Source of the DNA: Synergistaceae bacterium
GTDB taxonomy: Bacteria; Synergistota; Synergistia; Synergistales; Aminobacteriaceae
Reading direction: 5' to 3'
NCBI GenBank assembly: GCA_031267575.1
Contig: JAIRYN010000034.1
Location: forward strand, 1-45,271
DNA length: 45,271 bases
Shown here: piece by piece, positions 439 through 34,118 of the stretch
Position numbering within the stretch: position 1 is the stretch's first letter
Layout of the letters: every line of letters starts with the position of its first letter
Notes under the pieces: model-generated
The model's input: the letters and a program-made list of their open reading frames with translations, nothing else
Database searches by the model: none
What the model was told of the DNA's origin: nothing
Position numbers and translations under genes: made by a program

Positions 439-706
439 ATAGTGTTTTCTCCCTCCTGCCAATATTCTCCCTGAACTACGTCCATCCAATCAGTGATCCG
501 AGTAGACGATCTTCGGTTGCTTCCTCATTTAACATACTCCCACGACTAAAGTCATGGGATTCTAAGATCGACAAAGACAGCCGACTAAAACCGGTCTTAC
601 GTCTTCTCCTTTAAGAGTGGATGCCCCCACTCTGAGAATATTTACATCCACATTGATATCCTGGTCGTGTTCCGCCCCGCATCTCACGTTGATAAGCCAT
701 AAAAGG

Positions 707-735
707 AGTTTAACATGAAAATAGACATATGACAA
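707..735 (-). promoter_or_regulatory. Sigma70-like promoter within copy A, likely driving tuf
   Basis: On the minus strand: TTGTCA, a 17-nt spacer, then TAAACT. The same arrangement (TTGCCA-17-TAAACT) is conserved in copy B. Confidence 0.5.
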
Positions 736-774
736 GAAACCAAATACAAAACAAACGCCGCCGTTGACGGCGTT
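736..774 (-). terminator. Rho-independent-type terminator hairpin at the upstream edge of repeat copy A
   Basis: On the minus strand the stem aacgccgtc..gacggcgtt is followed by tgttttgtatttggtttcttg. Copy B carries compensatory stem changes (aacaccacc..ggcggtgtt). Confidence 0.5.
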
Positions 775-1233
775 GCGATTCTCATCCAACGGCTGAAGCC
801 ATTGGCTTTCTCATCGCTTTATCGTAATTTTAACAAAAAATTTCATCTTTTATCTATACACATATCTATACACAAAATGCCCGGAAAGAAACGCGCCTTT
901 TCCAGACTTCGCTCACTTTTTATCCGAAGGTGATCTTAGCATAAATCATGCTAATCTTAGCATAAATCTTCGAAATTTTGGGATTCTGCTCATCGTTCTT
1001 GCGTATCAGTAAGCGATCAACGACGACCATCGCCCGTGCGAGGTGTATAATCCGTAAATCATGACTGAGAATGAATACTGACTGAGAATGAATATTGAGA
1101 ATGAATATATAGAAGAGCTTCATATTTTGTTTGCTCGGACTACTCTGTGCCTGGTCCGCTTGATTGGGCGGCCATGACTAACAAGCAATGATAAATCGTT
1201 GAATTGACTATCAACTTTTCATAGGAGGAAATC

Positions 1234-23476: not shown

Positions 23477-23585
23477 CCTCCGGTCTTGTTCCGAAATTTT
23501 CTTGTTACTCGCATGGATAAATCTTCCTCGACAGATCTAATTGGTTCAACAGATCTAATTGGTTCCACAGATTGTCGAGCAATTG

Positions 23586-26500
23586 CTACAGATCCAATTG
23601 GTTCAGCAGATTGTCGAGCAACTGCTTTTTGAACTGCTCTTGAGCGTCTAAATCATCGTCGCCTCCGCCCGGACCGGTGGGAATCCTGAGGTTGAATCGA
23701 ATTTTTCTTTCGCTTTCCTTGCGCTGGGTGGTCGTGTCGTTGCGTAAAGGTAGATATTCCTCAATGGATTTATCGATGGTGAGGTTCAAAAGTTGCAACT
23801 CCTTCCAGCTCCCCTTGAGTTGGAAAGTGACGTCTTGGAAATCCCGCTCGGAGTAACCTACCAATTTGCTCACCGCCTGGCGTAGCAACTGGCCATTTCC
23901 CGCAAGGGACCCTGTCATGAACTGCAAAACTCCTTTCAGAGCTCCCAGCACCGTATTGAGAGCCTGAACGTCGAAGCGTCCTTTGCAAATCAGAGCCAAG
24001 TCCTTGCCCAACAGGCCCAGAGGACCGTTGATCGAGAAATATTTGTAAAGCGGGGCTCCAGGTTTGGCCGTGGCCTGAGTACCTGGATTCAACCATAGGT
24101 CGTTGCCGTCCCAAAAAAACGATCCCCGTATTTCCTCGAAAGAGATACGTCCGTCTTTGGTTATATTTTTGAGTATGTCAAACTCGTGGATGTACCCCTC
24201 GCTGGACCGGAAATCTCCATTGGCGAAGACCATCATCAAGGGTCCGTAATTGCCTTTCAACTGGACGTTGACGTCGGCACTGCCCACAATGGCCCCTTGC
24301 GCCATAAAGGGGTGGGCTGCCTGGCCAATATTCAGCCCGGAGATCTTTGCCGTTGCTTTCCATTGCTGATCCGGCATGTTGACATCGGCATTGATGTCGA
24401 TTTTTCCGCCATAAGCGACACCCGTGCCCTCCCGCACCGACGCCCGTCCCTCCGAGACCCGAATGGGGAGGAAGATGTCCCGCAACTCCACGCCGGCCAC
24501 CGAAAAGACCGGAAGCGTCAGCATGACATTGGCGACCGCCGGACCCCTGTTTCTTCGTCCGTTCATACGACCCGTAACGCGGGCCTTGACGTTTCCCGCG
24601 AACTGTCCTTTCAGGGAGGGCATTTTGGCCGACACCAACTGATCCAGGTCCAGAATACTGCTCTCAGCGGCATAGCCCCAACCTTCTTTATTGCGCTCCA
24701 TGTGTCCCTTGAGTGTCAAGGCCAAATCCCCCAAGCGCCCCGACGCGTCCATGTCGAATTTGCCCCTGGCGGGAGAGATGATTGTCAGCATCAGGTGGTC
24801 CACCAATGTTTCCTGGATGGTTAGGGGAGAGGTAACCTCCAAGGCCAGCTCCGGCCGTAGGGGTGATCCCCGAAGCGACAGGAATCCATCCAGATATCCC
24901 CCGACCCCTCCGTCCAGGCCAAATTGGGCAAGCAGAGACCGGATTTCGATCCCTTTTACCTTCATACCGATTTGCAGTCTTCCACGTCGCCCGAAAGTGA
25001 GATTGCCATTTCCCTCCAGGGCGCCTTCGTTGATTTTCGCCTTTACGCTGCGTACTCTCACATTTCGGGTCGTACCCGTTACGTCGAGGTAAAGATCACG
25101 CACGTCGGTAGAGGCCACCATGATCGCGTTCGATCGGAGGGTGGCCGAAAGCGCGGCGTTGCTAACGGCGCCCGATACCTTGAGAGTGCCCTCTACTTTT
25201 CCTGTCACGTCCATATCCCAATCCTGGGCGATGCTTTCCAGATCCAGGTTCGTCAACGCGCCCGATAGGTTTAAATAAGGTTCTCCATTCTTGGACAGAT
25301 CGACATCGCCGCGGAAAGACAAGGACCCGCCCGGTACCTGTAGCGTCGTCTCAGGAAGGTAAACCTTGTTGTTTTCGTATGTTCCCGACAACTTCACGTG
25401 CCTGAGGGGCACTCCCGCCACCTTGTTTTCGTTGCTTATGAGCGTAACCATGACCCGAGGTGATGTAAGTGTTCCCTGAACTTCCAACGTCACGTCACAG
25501 AGTCCTTCAACCTGACTCAACTCCGGGATGGATTGTGGATTGAAGCCTTTAAGGTTTCCCGCGAAGCGAAGCTCGGAGGTGGTCAGATCAGCGGCGCCCG
25601 AAAAATCCAAGAGGGCTTTGTCGATCCGAGCTTTCAGATCTTCCAGGACAACGGTACCTTTTTCGTAACGCATAGAGGCTGACAGAGCGTCGAAACGCCT
25701 CCCAAAAAGGGTAAAAGCCTGGGATCGCGCCTCGCCTCTCACGGCAAGATCGTTACCGAGGCTCACGATGTGAGCGTCCGCGTCCAAAGTTCCGGAGAGG
25801 TCCAAGGGAGCGAGGGCGGGAAATGCGGTCGCCACTAGGTTGGATTTCATTTCTTTGAGGGTGAACTTCAGGGTTGAGTGCCAGAGTGCGTTTGACGCGC
25901 TCCGGAGAACTTCGCCCGCCCCAAAGACTTTTCCCCCAAAGACCTCTCCGGTGCAGTCCACCGCCAAGTTCCAATTCGGAGAAAGGACAAGGTTTGCCCG
26001 CAGCCCTTTGACGACCTCCTTGCCTTCCACTTTCAATTCAGGCAAACGCATGAAGACCTTGCCCGCCACGGCTCCTCCTTGGTCGGCCGAGGTCCAGAAA
26101 TCCACCATTCCCCCTTCGCCCTCCAAGCTCACCCCTGGCGATAGAAGGCGTTCCAGTTTTTTCATGGAGGCATTTCGGACGCTTCCCCGGGCGAAAAAGC
26201 GATCTGTCACCGGATTTGGTCGCAAGTCGGCGGAGACCTTCAGCTCGATATCGCCCGCTCCGCTTTCCAGCTTGGCCTGCGAGACGGAGAAATCCCCGGC
26301 TTTGTACCGCCAAGGTACGGAGGCTTCCACCGGAAAACCCGCGACTTGCCCGTCCTTTAAACGCAGTGTGCCCCAAGCGCCCAGGTTTTCACCTGCCCCC
26401 ATCACATCGATTTGCCCATCGATCTCGCCGCGTCCCTCTACTTGAGAAAAAACCGCCAATAACTCGTTGAGTTTCACAGACTGGAGAGAACCCTTCACCT

Positions 26501-27999: not shown

Positions 28000-29202
28000 A
28001 TGAGGGTTGCCGTAGGGTGGATTCTTTTTTCATGGTTGTTGACGGCGAGCGTCGCTGATTCGGCTTCGTCTGAGACGGCGCCGTCCATGGTGAAGCCTTT
28101 GGCGACGACGAACGCACCAGTGGTTTCCATTGAATTACCGGCGTCCTTGGCGTCCTCTTGGGAGAGACTTTCCTCGACCCTAACGGACGCCTTGAACCTC
28201 CAGGACAAACAGGAGACCTTGCCGGAATCCTCCTACTTCGGCGCGGACAAAATCAGCAACACGAAAAAAATCAACGCGCTTTTGGACAAGGTCGTCGAGA
28301 TTTTGGTTCAGGGCGACGCTAGCGATCTGCGTAGGCAGGCGATTGCGTTACGTGAGACAGGGCTGCCCGCTTTGCGCCGAGAAGTGGATGACCTCCGTAA
28401 CAAGCGTATTTCCGCTCCAGAGACCTCCAAAGTGCCCTGGGTCAAAACGCGCTCCCAAATAGAAGCGCGCATCGCGGAGCTGGATGTGGAGATCAAAGAG
28501 AAAGAGCGGCTTGCGATGGATATCGACAGCAAGATCGCCGAAGCGTTGAGAAACATGGGCCTCGATTTGGACGACAAACAAATCGACATCCTGCTGACCT
28601 CCGTCACTGGTGACGATCTTTTTCAAAACACGGTGGTCTTCGCGAATGTCAAACACGTGGTGGAAAAGCTCGCGGAGCTTTCTCGGGAAGACCGGGACAA
28701 CTTGGAGATCAGCCGGCGTTATATCGGTATGTACCTGGTGTTGAACGACGTTTTGATTGCCACTCAAGAGGGACTGATCGAGAAAATCAATATGGACTAC
28801 AAACCACGATTGGCCGAGTTGAAGGCCGAGGCCGAAAAACTTCGCGCGGAAGCCTTAGGACGCGCAAAACAAGGACAGTACTCGAAGACCCAAAAAGAGG
28901 CATTTGAGGTCAACGCCAAGGCCAACGCCATGACGGCGCGAGTGGCAGAGCTTTACGCGGAGCTCCTAGAAGGACAACGCAAAAATTTCAAGGTGACCTT
29001 GATGGACCTGCAACGCAACCGCGACGTGGCGGAGAGTACCTACAAGACTGTCCGGAGTACGGGCGACCTGAGAAACCTAATCCGCGCGGGGCTCGATTTG
29101 TTTGACTCCATCCATCCTCTTTCCATGCCTCAGCTTCAATCTTTTGAAAACGAGGCCATCCGCAAGGAGTTCGAAGAAATCAACAAACGTCTGAGAAAAT
29201 GA
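28000..29202 (+). CDS. Secreted coiled-coil protein of 400 aa, function unknown (possibly TelA-like)
   Basis: Signal peptide MRVAVGWILFSWLLTASVADSA, then long heptad-rich Glu/Lys/Ala/Leu segments. The TelA resemblance is weak. Confidence 0.55.
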   Translation: MRVAVGWILFSWLLTASVADSASSETAPSMVKPLATTNAPVVSIELPASLASSWERLSSTLTDALNLQDKQETLPESSYFGADKISNTKKINALLDKVVEILVQGDASDLRRQAIALRETGLPALRREVDDLRNKRISAPETSKVPWVKTRSQIEARIAELDVEIKEKERLAMDIDSKIAEALRNMGLDLDDKQIDILLTSVTGDDLFQNTVVFANVKHVVEKLAELSREDRDNLEISRRYIGMYLVLNDVLIATQEGLIEKINMDYKPRLAELKAEAEKLRAEALGRAKQGQYSKTQKEAFEVNAKANAMTARVAELYAELLEGQRKNFKVTLMDLQRNRDVAESTYKTVRSTGDLRNLIRAGLDLFDSIHPLSMPQLQSFENEAIRKEFEEINKRLRK

Positions 29203-29229
29203 AAATACGCTATCTTTCGTTAAGAGATC

Positions 29230-29263
29230 TGTAATTATTATTAGAGGTCGCTGTATTATACAG
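29230..29263 (+). terminator. Hairpin terminator candidate after the coiled-coil gene
   Basis: Near-perfect palindrome ttagaggtcgctgta-tta-tacagcgacctctaa with an AT-rich flank and no clean T-run. Confidence 0.4.
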
Positions 29264-29675
29264 CGACCTCTAATGCCGGTGGACAGCCGGCTCACAACAC
29301 AGGGAGGTGTTGCGAAATTATATTAACACGCATTTTATATAAGGTATACTATAATAAATCTTAGGATATGACGTAAAAATTGCTTAAAAATATTATAATG
29401 AAGCTATAATTAAAATAAAATAAATAAGAATGATATTTGAAACAGTATTAAAACTTACTTTGTTTTACATCTATCCGTGTCGCTATGTCGGTTGTTTGTT
29501 TTTGAGTAAATATTTTATCGTTTTGAAGCGAAAGATATCCCTGACGCTGACGGCGGATCCCTTCTATATGTTTTATGCGCATGCTTTATGCGCATGCTTT
29601 ATGCGCGATGTGTAAATGAAGTTAGTGGTCGCCTTGTTTTTGTCCCTGGTATTCCCTCTCTGAAGTTTTTATTTT

Positions 29676-29989
29676 TACGATAAAGCGATCCTCATCCAAC
29701 AGCTGAAGCCGTTGGATGAGGATCGCAACACCACCGTTGGCGGTGTTTGTTTTGTATTTGGTTTCTTGCCATATGTCTACTTTCATGTTAAACTCCTTTT
29801 ATGGCTTATCAACGTGAGATGCGGGGCGGAACACGACCAGGATATTAATGCGGTTGTAAATATTCTAAGAGTGGGAGCATCCACTCTTAGTGGGGGCATC
29901 CACTCTTAAAGGAAAAGACGTAAGACCGGTTTCAGTCGGCTGTTTTTGTCGATCTTATAATCCCATGACTTTAGTCGTGGGAGTATGTC
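29676..29989 (+). repeat. Copy B of the promoter-leader repeat cassette, oriented toward cobQ
   Basis: Inverted relative to copy A at about 90% identity. Contains a 19-bp internal tandem duplication (29869-29906) and the conserved hairpin cccatgac-ttta-gtcgtggg at 29962-29981. Confidence 0.85.
29766..29794 (+). promoter_or_regulatory. Sigma70-like promoter within copy B, likely driving cobQ
   Basis: TTGCCA, 17-nt spacer, TAAACT. It is preceded by a hairpin plus T-run (29727-29768) that overlaps the -35 element. Confidence 0.5.
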
Positions 29990-30022
29990 AAGTAAGGAGT
30001 TTGTGCGTAAGGAGTTTGTGCG

Positions 30023-33579: not shown

Positions 33580-33770
33580 ACACAGCACCCCCAAAAATTT
33601 TAAGACTATTGTTTGTTCCATGTTCTGTAAAGCCCCGTCCTTTAGGGTGGAAATATAAGTGGAAATATAATATAAGAAACATCCGCTAAAGACGGATACG
33701 GGTTAGTTCTGTCTTATGTTACAATATTTACGCAGATATGGGGTAAAATGTTGCGGCATTGAACGTAGCA

Positions 33771-33867
33771 GTATCCACTCTTAGAGAAGAAGACGTAAGA
33801 CTGGCTCCGGCCAGCAATCTTTGTCGATCCCAGAATCTTCTCGCTTTAGCGAGGGGAATATGTCAAG
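33771..33867 (+). repeat. Copy C: the 97-nt core of the leader element, upstream of rex
   Basis: Matches the 3' part of the copy A/B leader (atccactctta.ag.a.aagacgtaagac...tttgtcgatc...agaatc...hairpin...tatgtcaag). Its terminal hairpin cttctcgc-ttta-gcgagggg at 33837-33856 covaries with the copy A/B hairpin. Confidence 0.75.
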
Positions 33868-34118
33868 ATAGCATGTGGAAACGCTACGCCGAAGAAATTT
33901 CGCTCATCTCCAGGGCGTCGGACAGGTTTTTCCGAGGCGTTTTTTGTTTGTTTCTTCTGCTGCTCATGTCACTACCACAAATCCAACTTGCGATTTTGGG
34001 ATGTCTTGAGGAGCTTGACATTTGGGATATTATCGATATTATGTTATTGATAATGGAATACCGAAGATATCAATGTCTTCGCGGGCATCGAAAATCCTAG
34101 TGATCCGAGGTGTGAATA

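Follow-up and report, generated by a model that had tools for sequence, protein, structure and literature searches.

Two closely similar repeats of about 300 bp in a 45,271-nucleotide contig of a Synergistaceae metagenome-assembled genome (MAG; contig JAIRYN010000034.1; this whole stretch is called the window below), one ahead of tuf (copy A) and one ahead of cobQ (copy B), are very likely two insertions of a single gene-less, internally deleted derivative of an IS200/IS605 transposon of the IS608 type. The element resembles the palindrome-associated transposable elements (PATEs) and miniature inverted-repeat transposable elements (MITEs), and a third copy upstream of rex (copy C) is, on the same account, what further deletion has left of a sister short form. 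What we can demonstrate is the homology of every segment to autonomous elements, the boundaries of the copies and their TTAC/TCAA geometry, covariation, and the missing element at an orthologous locus. An earlier sequence-only reading of the window had proposed either a mobile module carrying a terminator, a promoter and a structured RNA, or an unrecognised cis-regulatory RNA family or free-standing promoter-leader. The mobile module has held up, since its ends and parts match those of IS200/IS605 elements; the regulatory RNA or promoter-leader has not, because all of its parts map to such a transposon.

A repeat search of the window finds A and B as two pairs of inverted arms (612-805/29696-29889, 194 nt, 90% identical; 522-636/29884-29998, 115 nt, 92%) and B and C as a direct repeat of 95 nt (29898-29992/33773-33867, 74%). 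Copies A and B are about 90-93% identical. Their global alignment holds 267 matches, 19 mismatches and 36 gap columns, and together with a three-way alignment it sets the unit limits of A and B given in Table 1. The earlier estimate of about 90% identity therefore stands, with ends that shift by only a few bases. Consensus scans likewise uphold the hairpin with T-run and the -35/-10 pair with a 17-nt spacer that had been described in both copies, oriented toward tuf in A and toward cobQ in B, and Pfam confirms the neighbouring genes as EF-Tu (tuf), CobQ and Rex. A covariance model of the right-end core (R1) matches three places in the window and no others: A at 529-650 (138 bits), B at 29870-29991 (121.5 bits) and C (108.6 bits). 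Copy C does share the leader core with A and B, as had been claimed, but it is not confined to that core. In two short elements from relatives, L013 and L004, its segment 33713-33765 finds a counterpart in the -10 of the promoter together with the opening ~35 nt of the RNA (local alignment scores of 44 and 40, with a shuffle mean of ~17 and sd of 2.3), so that the copy reaches from 33713 to 33866. The sister short form consists of a left end, a terminator, an extended -10, a ~230-nt non-coding scaffold and a right end; F. fastidiosum and some MAGs each have it more than once.

The further copies in relatives that the sequence-only reading had suggested looking for do exist, and they carry the argument for a transposon. 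We scanned 185,579 species genomes (one per species), plus metagenomes, with the pattern AAGACGTAAGAC-N14-24-TTTGTCGATC, which joins two blocks conserved between A/B and C. Genuine matches fell in Fretibacterium/Synergistaceae or metagenome contigs only and yielded 10 distinct cores beyond the window's 3; L007 and L010 were discarded as a chance match within protein-coding sequence of a Thermodesulfobacteriota genome. In L005, a 379-amino-acid (aa) open reading frame (ORF) with OrfB_IS605 and Cas12f1-like_TNB domains (Pfam) has the core at its 3' end and is preceded by a 132-aa ORF (267-665) that is a Y1_Tnp protein (Pfam, 1.3e-38). By sequence match the L005 TnpA corresponds to ISHp608 TnpA (PDB 2a6m, E = 3.6e-30) and the L005 TnpB to ISDra2 TnpB (PDB 8bf8/8exa/8h1j, E = 1.5e-46). 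The identical type of tnpB with the same core is found in L008, L014 and L016, of which L008 has tnpA too, and the two genes are co-oriented in these autonomous relatives. When residues 341-379 of the L005 TnpB (CASIHDRDLNAAKNIERVGASTLKGEDVRPDVSGCLCRS) were searched by tblastn, they aligned to A at 681-565 (69% identity, E = 3e-12), to B in two frames (E = 1.3e-10) and to C at 33765-33830 (55% identity). Scaffold and tnpB thus overlap in that the core encodes TnpB residues 341-379, with the stop codon in the GAAT region and the right end 32 nt further on. The relic in B is frameshifted by a 19-nt tandem duplication of hairpin 1 (AGTGGGAGCATCCACTCTT / AGTGGGGGCATCCACTCTT, at 29870-29888 and 29889-29907).

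The ends of the copies tell the same story. Alignment of A, B, L005 and L008 gives a common left end that runs from TTAC through GA(C/T)A..., a linker of 18 nt that closes with AAAG, a hairpin of 8 bp and a 4-nt loop, and ATGA..GCAAC to a terminator hairpin (AACGCCGCC...GGCGTT) with T-run, the promoter TTGTCA-17-TAAACT and, 6 nt on, the tnpA ATG (in L005 the -10 ends at 260 and the ATG is at 267). A, L005, L008, L006 and L017 all have AAAG before the left hairpin, and the terminator of A recurs, conserved, in L005, L008 and L013 as well as in the short elements. The left flank is TTAC at all seven distinct readable left ends (A, B, L002, the L003 group, L005, L012 and L017), and the same comparison reveals no target duplication across the element. 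Right ends are laid out as GAAT, a hairpin of 8 bp with a 4-nt loop, and 10 nt ending in TCAA. Similarity stops at ...GTATGTCAA (GTTAA in A) at 14/14 distinct insertion sites, and the flanks diverge beyond it. Among the 13 distinct copies, 12 have the TCAA tail, the exception being A with TTAA, and 12 have GAAT before the right hairpin, the exception being B with TAAT. Left and right subterminal palindromes are alike in A, there are no terminal inverted repeats, and the R1 model also matches the left-end hairpins of L002, L005, L008 and L017, weakly (E 0.02-0.07).

The compensatory changes that had been described in three 3' hairpins are borne out by the 13 distinct cores (3 from the window and 10 from relatives). 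In the three hairpins 91.9% of cells pair, as compared with 81.1% for column shuffles and 39-46% for slid partners, and changes on both sides occur in 11 of 21 pairs, a count reached by none of 500 shuffles. Double changes affect 4 of 6 pairs in helix 2 and 5 of 8 in helix 3. Helix 2 lies within the tnpB frame; the coding copies L005, L008 and L016 share one sequence for it (CCGGACGTGTCCGG), and in most gene-less copies it varies, with compensation. This pattern points to selection at the RNA level, on what would be an omegaRNA scaffold, after loss of the coding constraint. RNAalifold adds further, invariant pairs to helix 2 and so lengthens its stem. The covariation previously reported for the terminator stem survives in part: between A and B there is one clean compensatory pair (G-C to A-T), and the B stem also contains one mismatch. 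Rfam has no family for the region: the window returned nothing at the gathering threshold and only chance-level matches at E up to 10, and searches of the window and relatives at gathering and permissive settings returned only tRNAs in L004 and chance miRNA/snoRNA matches. The exclusion of a cobalamin riboswitch was correct, as none appeared in these searches.

The cobQ locus provides a comparison with an orthologous site. In the Synergistaceae MAG L019 the order lspA, 400-aa gene, cobQ is the same as in the window and the intergenic region aligns to window positions 29200-29600. The junction reads CCTAC-GGCAAAGGAG...ATG in L019 and TTTAC-GTAAGGAG...ATG in the window minus the element; with one copy of a 15-nt repeat also removed, ...CCTAC GGCAAAGGAGCTTTCGCGATG stands against ...TTTAC GTAAGGAGTTTGTGCGATG. 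The locus lacks the element, but the comparison is not base-perfect, as CobQ is only 78% identical and the site has CTAC rather than TTAC. For the A locus, no ortholog was found for an empty-site comparison. Several other observations also weigh against an IS608-type origin or against parts of it. The tip of the left hairpin of B diverges from the right hairpin of B, and tblastn and Pfam find no tnpA or tnpB in the 45-kb contig beyond the relics in A, B and C. Helix 3 is the right-end palindrome bound by TnpA, so a DNA-level constraint suffices for its covariation, which cannot separate constraint on RNA from constraint on single-stranded DNA (TnpA binding). Finally, when folded at full length, the transcript predicted for A is barely more stable than shuffled sequences (z = -1.83).

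Table 1. Features of copies A, B and C and their immediate surroundings in the window
Feature	Position	Strand	Basis or remark
Copy A, IS200/IS605 (IS608-like) element of 295 bp with an internal deletion, both ends included	529-823	-	
TTAC target / transposon-adjacent motif (TAM) abutting A left end	824-827	-	homology to B and relatives begins directly after TTAC
A left end: 18 nt ending AAAG (left guide tetranucleotide), then subterminal hairpin CCAATGGC-TTCA-GCCGTTGG	786-823	-	aligns to L005 and L008 left ends
A left-end terminator hairpin AACGCCGTC-AAC-GGCGGCGTT and T-run	744-774	-	hairpin scan (774-754)
A tnpA promoter TTGTCA-17-TAAACT, TG extension	707-735	-	consensus scan
A relic of tnpA codons 1-5 (ATG GCT TAT CAA CGT), internal deletion junction next	686-700	-	left-end alignment
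A relic of the last 39 tnpB codons (CGAEHDQDINVDVNILRVGASTLKGEDVRPVLVGCLCRS, then stop), 5' and central part of the predicted omegaRNA scaffold	562-681	-	tblastn
A hairpin 1 (AGAGTGG-GGGCAT-CCACTCT)	614-633	-	core comparison
A hairpin 2 (CCGGTT-TT-AGTCGG), tip of a longer predicted stem	581-594	-	hairpin scan, RNAalifold
A right end: GAAT (right guide tetranucleotide), hairpin CCCATGAC-TTTA-GTCGTGGG at 539-558, 10-nt tail ending TTAA	529-562	-	core comparison
16-nt guide predicted for the omegaRNA of A (ATGAGGAAGCAACCGA), supplied by the 5' region of tuf on the flank	513-528	-	positional inference
Copy B, 313 bp, deletion junction identical to that of A	29679-29991	+	
TTAC abutting B left end	29675-29678	+	alignment
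B left-end hairpin, variant form: perfect palindrome, GAGAAAG -> CCTCAT	29685-29726	+	hairpin scan, alignment; 16 bp read by eye, 19 pairs by scan allowing G-T
B left-end terminator hairpin AACACCACC-GTT-GGCGGTGTT and T-run	29727-29759	+	scan calls a 5-bp core 29732-29745 (CACCG-TTGG-CGGTG) and T-run; stem 29727-29747 and T-run limit extended by eye
B tnpA promoter TTGCCA-17-TAAACT, TG extension	29766-29794	+	consensus scan, alignment
B relic tnpA ATG	29801-29803	+	left-end alignment
B tnpB 3' relic, two frames	29820-29955	+	tblastn, alignment
B hairpin 2	29926-29939	+	hairpin scan, core comparison
B right end: TAAT, hairpin 29962-29981, 10-nt tail ending TCAA	29958-29991	+	core comparison
B right flank, predicted guide: GTAAGGAGTTTGTGC in tandem, two copies	29992-30021	+	alignment
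cobQ ATG	30023	+	Shine-Dalgarno inside the 29992-30021 duplication
Copy C, relic of sister short form, further deleted	33713-33866	+	
C extended -10 TGTTACAAT	33717-33725	+	alignment to short elements
C remainder: ~35 nt of RNA 5' part, ~130-nt deletion, right-end core	to 33866	+	alignment
C hairpin 2; GAAT and hairpin; end of TCAA tail	33801-33814; 33833-33856; 33866	+	core comparison

The right guide tetranucleotide (GR) of IS608 is GAAT. This element (ISHp608, from Helicobacter pylori) targets TTAC and is cleaved there on the left, 19 nt ahead of the left hairpin, whose foot carries the left guide tetranucleotide (GL) AAAG; on the right it is cleaved at TCAA, 10 nt beyond the right hairpin (PMC3201880). 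Like IS608, the window elements sit 3' of TTAC with the left hairpin 18-19 nt from the cleavage site and AAAG at its foot, the right end of the family finishes with TCAA 10 nt 3' of the hairpin, and the relatives have a homologous TnpA with tnpA and tnpB co-oriented. Unlike IS608, the window copies have lost both genes except for 5 tnpA and ~39 tnpB codons, the host is a member of the Synergistaceae, and the copies depart from the motifs in that A has TTAA for TCAA while B has TAAT for GAAT and is without AAAG. PATEs are gene-less, non-autonomous IS200/IS605 derivatives that encode an omegaRNA and would need TnpB in trans (PMC10055086), and they have been described in Haloquadratum and, as ISGst, in Geobacillus stearothermophilus (Meers et al. 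2023, PMC10055086). The window elements share with them the retention of both ends and the right-end scaffold without a protein gene, as well as the presence of several copies and of autonomous relatives in related genomes. They differ in retaining the tnpA promoter and left-end terminator, which feed straight into the scaffold, and in the position of A and B directly ahead of host genes, with both apparently immobilised. An omegaRNA is a scaffold spanning the right end followed by ~16 nt of flank as guide (PMC10705468). The comparison with the TnpB-omegaRNA system of ISDra2 (where the RNA is called right-end element RNA, reRNA) is close in layout: TnpB of the relatives is homologous, and the scaffold overlaps the tnpB 3' end and ends at the right boundary, with the guide coming from the flank. 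Unlike ISDra2, the predicted TAM is TTAC rather than TTGAT, the scaffold is unrelated in nucleotides and has no Rfam model, and the window holds no TnpB. As judged from their sequences, then, the elements fit the description of non-autonomous IS200/IS605 elements with a predicted omegaRNA, and none of the testable defining features contradicts it.

If this assignment is right, each part of the supposed regulatory cassette acquires a role in the life of a transposon. The 18-nt linker ending in AAAG and the subterminal hairpin would form the left end recognised by the Y1 transposase TnpA, and the terminator hairpin would shield the element against transcription from outside. The tnpA promoter and five tnpA codons would be followed, across the deletion junction, by the last ~39 tnpB codons and the right end, so that the "structured leader" of the earlier reading would be an omegaRNA scaffold that includes the right-end TnpA hairpin. 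It is with such a scaffold RNA and a ~16-nt guide from the flank that TnpB cuts the empty donor site, which causes the element to be retained. The compensatory changes would then reflect selection on RNA and single-stranded DNA structures while the family spread. Transcription from the tnpA promoter would cover the scaffold and probably run on into tuf and cobQ. For cobQ this promoter is probably the operative one today, given that the right end of B is 1-2 nt from the ribosome-binding site and that the left-end terminator would block transcription from upstream. Since tetranucleotide mutation abolishes complex formation in IS608 (PMC3201880), the altered TCAA of A and the altered GAAT and lost AAAG of B suggest that both copies are fixed in place and no longer excisable.

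What selection now maintains at the two loci is a further question, and it is only on this question that exaptation competes with a transposon origin, with which it is otherwise compatible. According to the exaptation view, host dependence keeps the immobilised elements: tuf and cobQ rely on the tnpA promoter, with the scaffold as a cis-regulatory 5' leader. We consider it unlikely overall, but several features of A and B speak for it. The right end of B is 1-2 nt from the cobQ Shine-Dalgarno sequence and the left-end terminator lies upstream. From the A terminator to the start codon of tuf, the scan for sigma-70-like sites picks up nothing but the promoter of the element itself; one more match, at 856-827, is upstream of the terminator. 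The changes of TCAA in A and of GAAT in B are each unique to that copy, in line with fixation, and B has also lost AAAG (GAGAAAG -> CCTCAT). The flank duplication around the cobQ ribosome-binding site fits as well. Arguing the other way, a terminator-like hairpin with T-run (33918-33935) and a near-consensus promoter (TTGACA-16-TATTAT, 34015-34042) stand between C and rex and insulate the gene, which also disposes of the earlier suggestion that C is a leader of rex. Family members in relatives lie beside unrelated genes, some of them convergent, or have none facing them, and a rule that the right end faces a gene start, which we considered, is not seen among them. Moreover, cobQ of L019 is taken to be expressed without the element, and A and B, which agree at only about 90-93% and differ by indels within the scaffold, do not look like a leader under strong purifying selection. 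An extended version of the idea is that the host has captured two immobilised omegaRNA mini-transposons to serve tuf, an essential gene of translation, and cobQ as functional promoters and 5' leaders, with expression wired through a TnpB-binding scaffold, such that a TnpB/TldR-like protein encoded elsewhere could modulate both genes by processing or occluding the leaders, and with the 15-nt duplication at cobQ as a scar of capture or an adaptation. We regard it as a long shot.

It is also conceivable that the loci are stand-alone guide-RNA (gRNA) genes, producing a trans-acting omegaRNA or gRNA for a TnpB or a nuclease-dead TldR-like relative encoded elsewhere that would regulate the 5' regions of tuf, cobQ and rex. 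The extended -10 promoter ahead of the scaffold in all copies, including C, and the compensation in helix 2 of non-coding copies are in keeping with this, and TldR proteins, which are domesticated TnpB transcription factors with adjacent gRNAs, provide a precedent (PMC10705468). The window likewise places a TnpB-type scaffold and adjacent guide beside host genes. Unlike TldR systems, however, in which the gRNA lies beside tldR and the transposon ends are lost, it keeps both ends, and no tnpB or tldR gene is nearby: the window has no TnpB-like ORF, and the 400-aa ORF upstream of B has no Pfam TnpB match. The guides of the intact loci match only their own flank (the predicted guide of A occurs once in the window), beside the right end and not TTAC, so that these loci are not valid targets. 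With ~130 nt of the scaffold missing from C and a 19-nt duplication inside that of B, we judge this explanation very improbable. As for a novel cis-regulatory RNA or riboswitch, or a native promoter copied by segmental duplication or gene conversion without transposition, the structured, covarying RNA and the lack of an Rfam match were its attraction. It is now largely refuted, as each segment is homologous to elements bearing tnpA and tnpB, similarity stops exactly at the TTAC and TCAA boundaries, and the orthologous cobQ locus of L019 is without the element. Nor does the setting resemble that of a cis-regulatory RNA, for which related downstream genes and contiguity with the mRNA are expected: tuf, cobQ and rex are unrelated, and C is insulated from rex. 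The origin of A and B as internally deleted IS608-type elements remains the reading we prefer.

The family shows some further variation. Two left-end forms recur across sub-lineages, one with the canonical linker ending in GAGAAAG before the hairpin (A, L017) and an alternative one in which this heptamer is replaced and the hairpin grows to a perfect palindrome of 16-20 bp (B, L002); their recurrence looks like repeated hairpin-templated conversion. In L013 (1180-1692) a short element with hairpin, terminator, extended -10, non-coding scaffold and right end directly follows a different, AT-rich tnpB whose own 3' end gives a weak covariance-model match, with no TTAC at the junction. The arrangement represents either nested or tandem elements, or an omegaRNA with its own promoter downstream of tnpB. 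L001 (7700-7922) has 23 nt inserted in the right-end hairpin region and a second right-end tail and flank ~60 nt downstream, and in L008 and L014 an insertion of ~23 nt in the hairpin-1 loop gives TnpB the C-terminus ...RVGARPKNGANFPLLREKT. A small antisense ORF in B, preceded by AAGGAG-N6-ATG, was rejected as a gene: it corresponds to the promoter and tnpA start read on the opposite strand, has 5 codons in A, and its Shine-Dalgarno sequence is not conserved in L005.

Around the insertions, the 15-nt tandem duplication of GTAAGGAGTTTGTGC begins exactly at the right boundary of B and spans the cobQ Shine-Dalgarno sequence, with a single copy in the L019 ortholog; a repair scar and an adaptation restoring the spacing to the ribosome-binding site are both possible origins. 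Upstream of B, the region 29210-29600 is conserved with L019 1850-2230 and contains a terminator-like palindrome and small hairpins (GCCGGTGGACAGCCGGC, CAACACAGGGAGGTGTTG) without an Rfam match, as well as a promoter-like TTAACA-16-TATACT at 29323-29350; it may be the ancestral cobQ promoter or leader. A short tandem repeat of ATGCGCATGCTTT, ~2.5 units, occupies 29575-29608. The 29 kb between A and B hold housekeeping genes (MurJ, H+-PPase, MoxR, GGDEF, CobD and others). With this interior, and with the lspA / 400-aa gene / cobQ synteny with L019 intact and no current inversion, we set aside a composite transposon or invertible segment bounded by the two copies. Also set aside were two candidates for a hidden TnpB or TnpA, both without a Pfam match: the 400-aa ORF upstream of B, which by eye is of a secreted, coiled-coil type, and a 231-aa ORF beside A, for a hypothetical protein of sporadic occurrence. 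Its best homologues reach only 45-50% identity, and the named among them are in Proteobacteria. This ORF follows the inner flank of A, which is AT-rich and carries short tandem repeats (about 930-975 and 1060-1105), and a DUF488 gene comes next; the stretch 830-2516 is probably a horizontally acquired patch. Elsewhere, a family of 18/39-nt direct repeats lies at 23531-23626, near the start of a 1224-aa AsmA/TamB-like ORF, and GC skew was uninformative on replichore orientation.

These results remove a candidate "new RNA family" by tracing its covariation to constraints on transposon ends and guide RNA, and thus provide a caution for structure-based screens. The kind of element is itself known. 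What is new is an IS608-like family in Synergistaceae/Fretibacterium, with TTAC as its predicted TAM and right ends finishing in TCAA, that includes several gene-less forms in which the tnpA promoter has been kept ahead of the predicted omegaRNA scaffold. A possible further novelty lies in promoter capture at cobQ and tuf: if the element's promoter does drive either gene, this would amount to promoter donation by a mini-element of the TnpB family.

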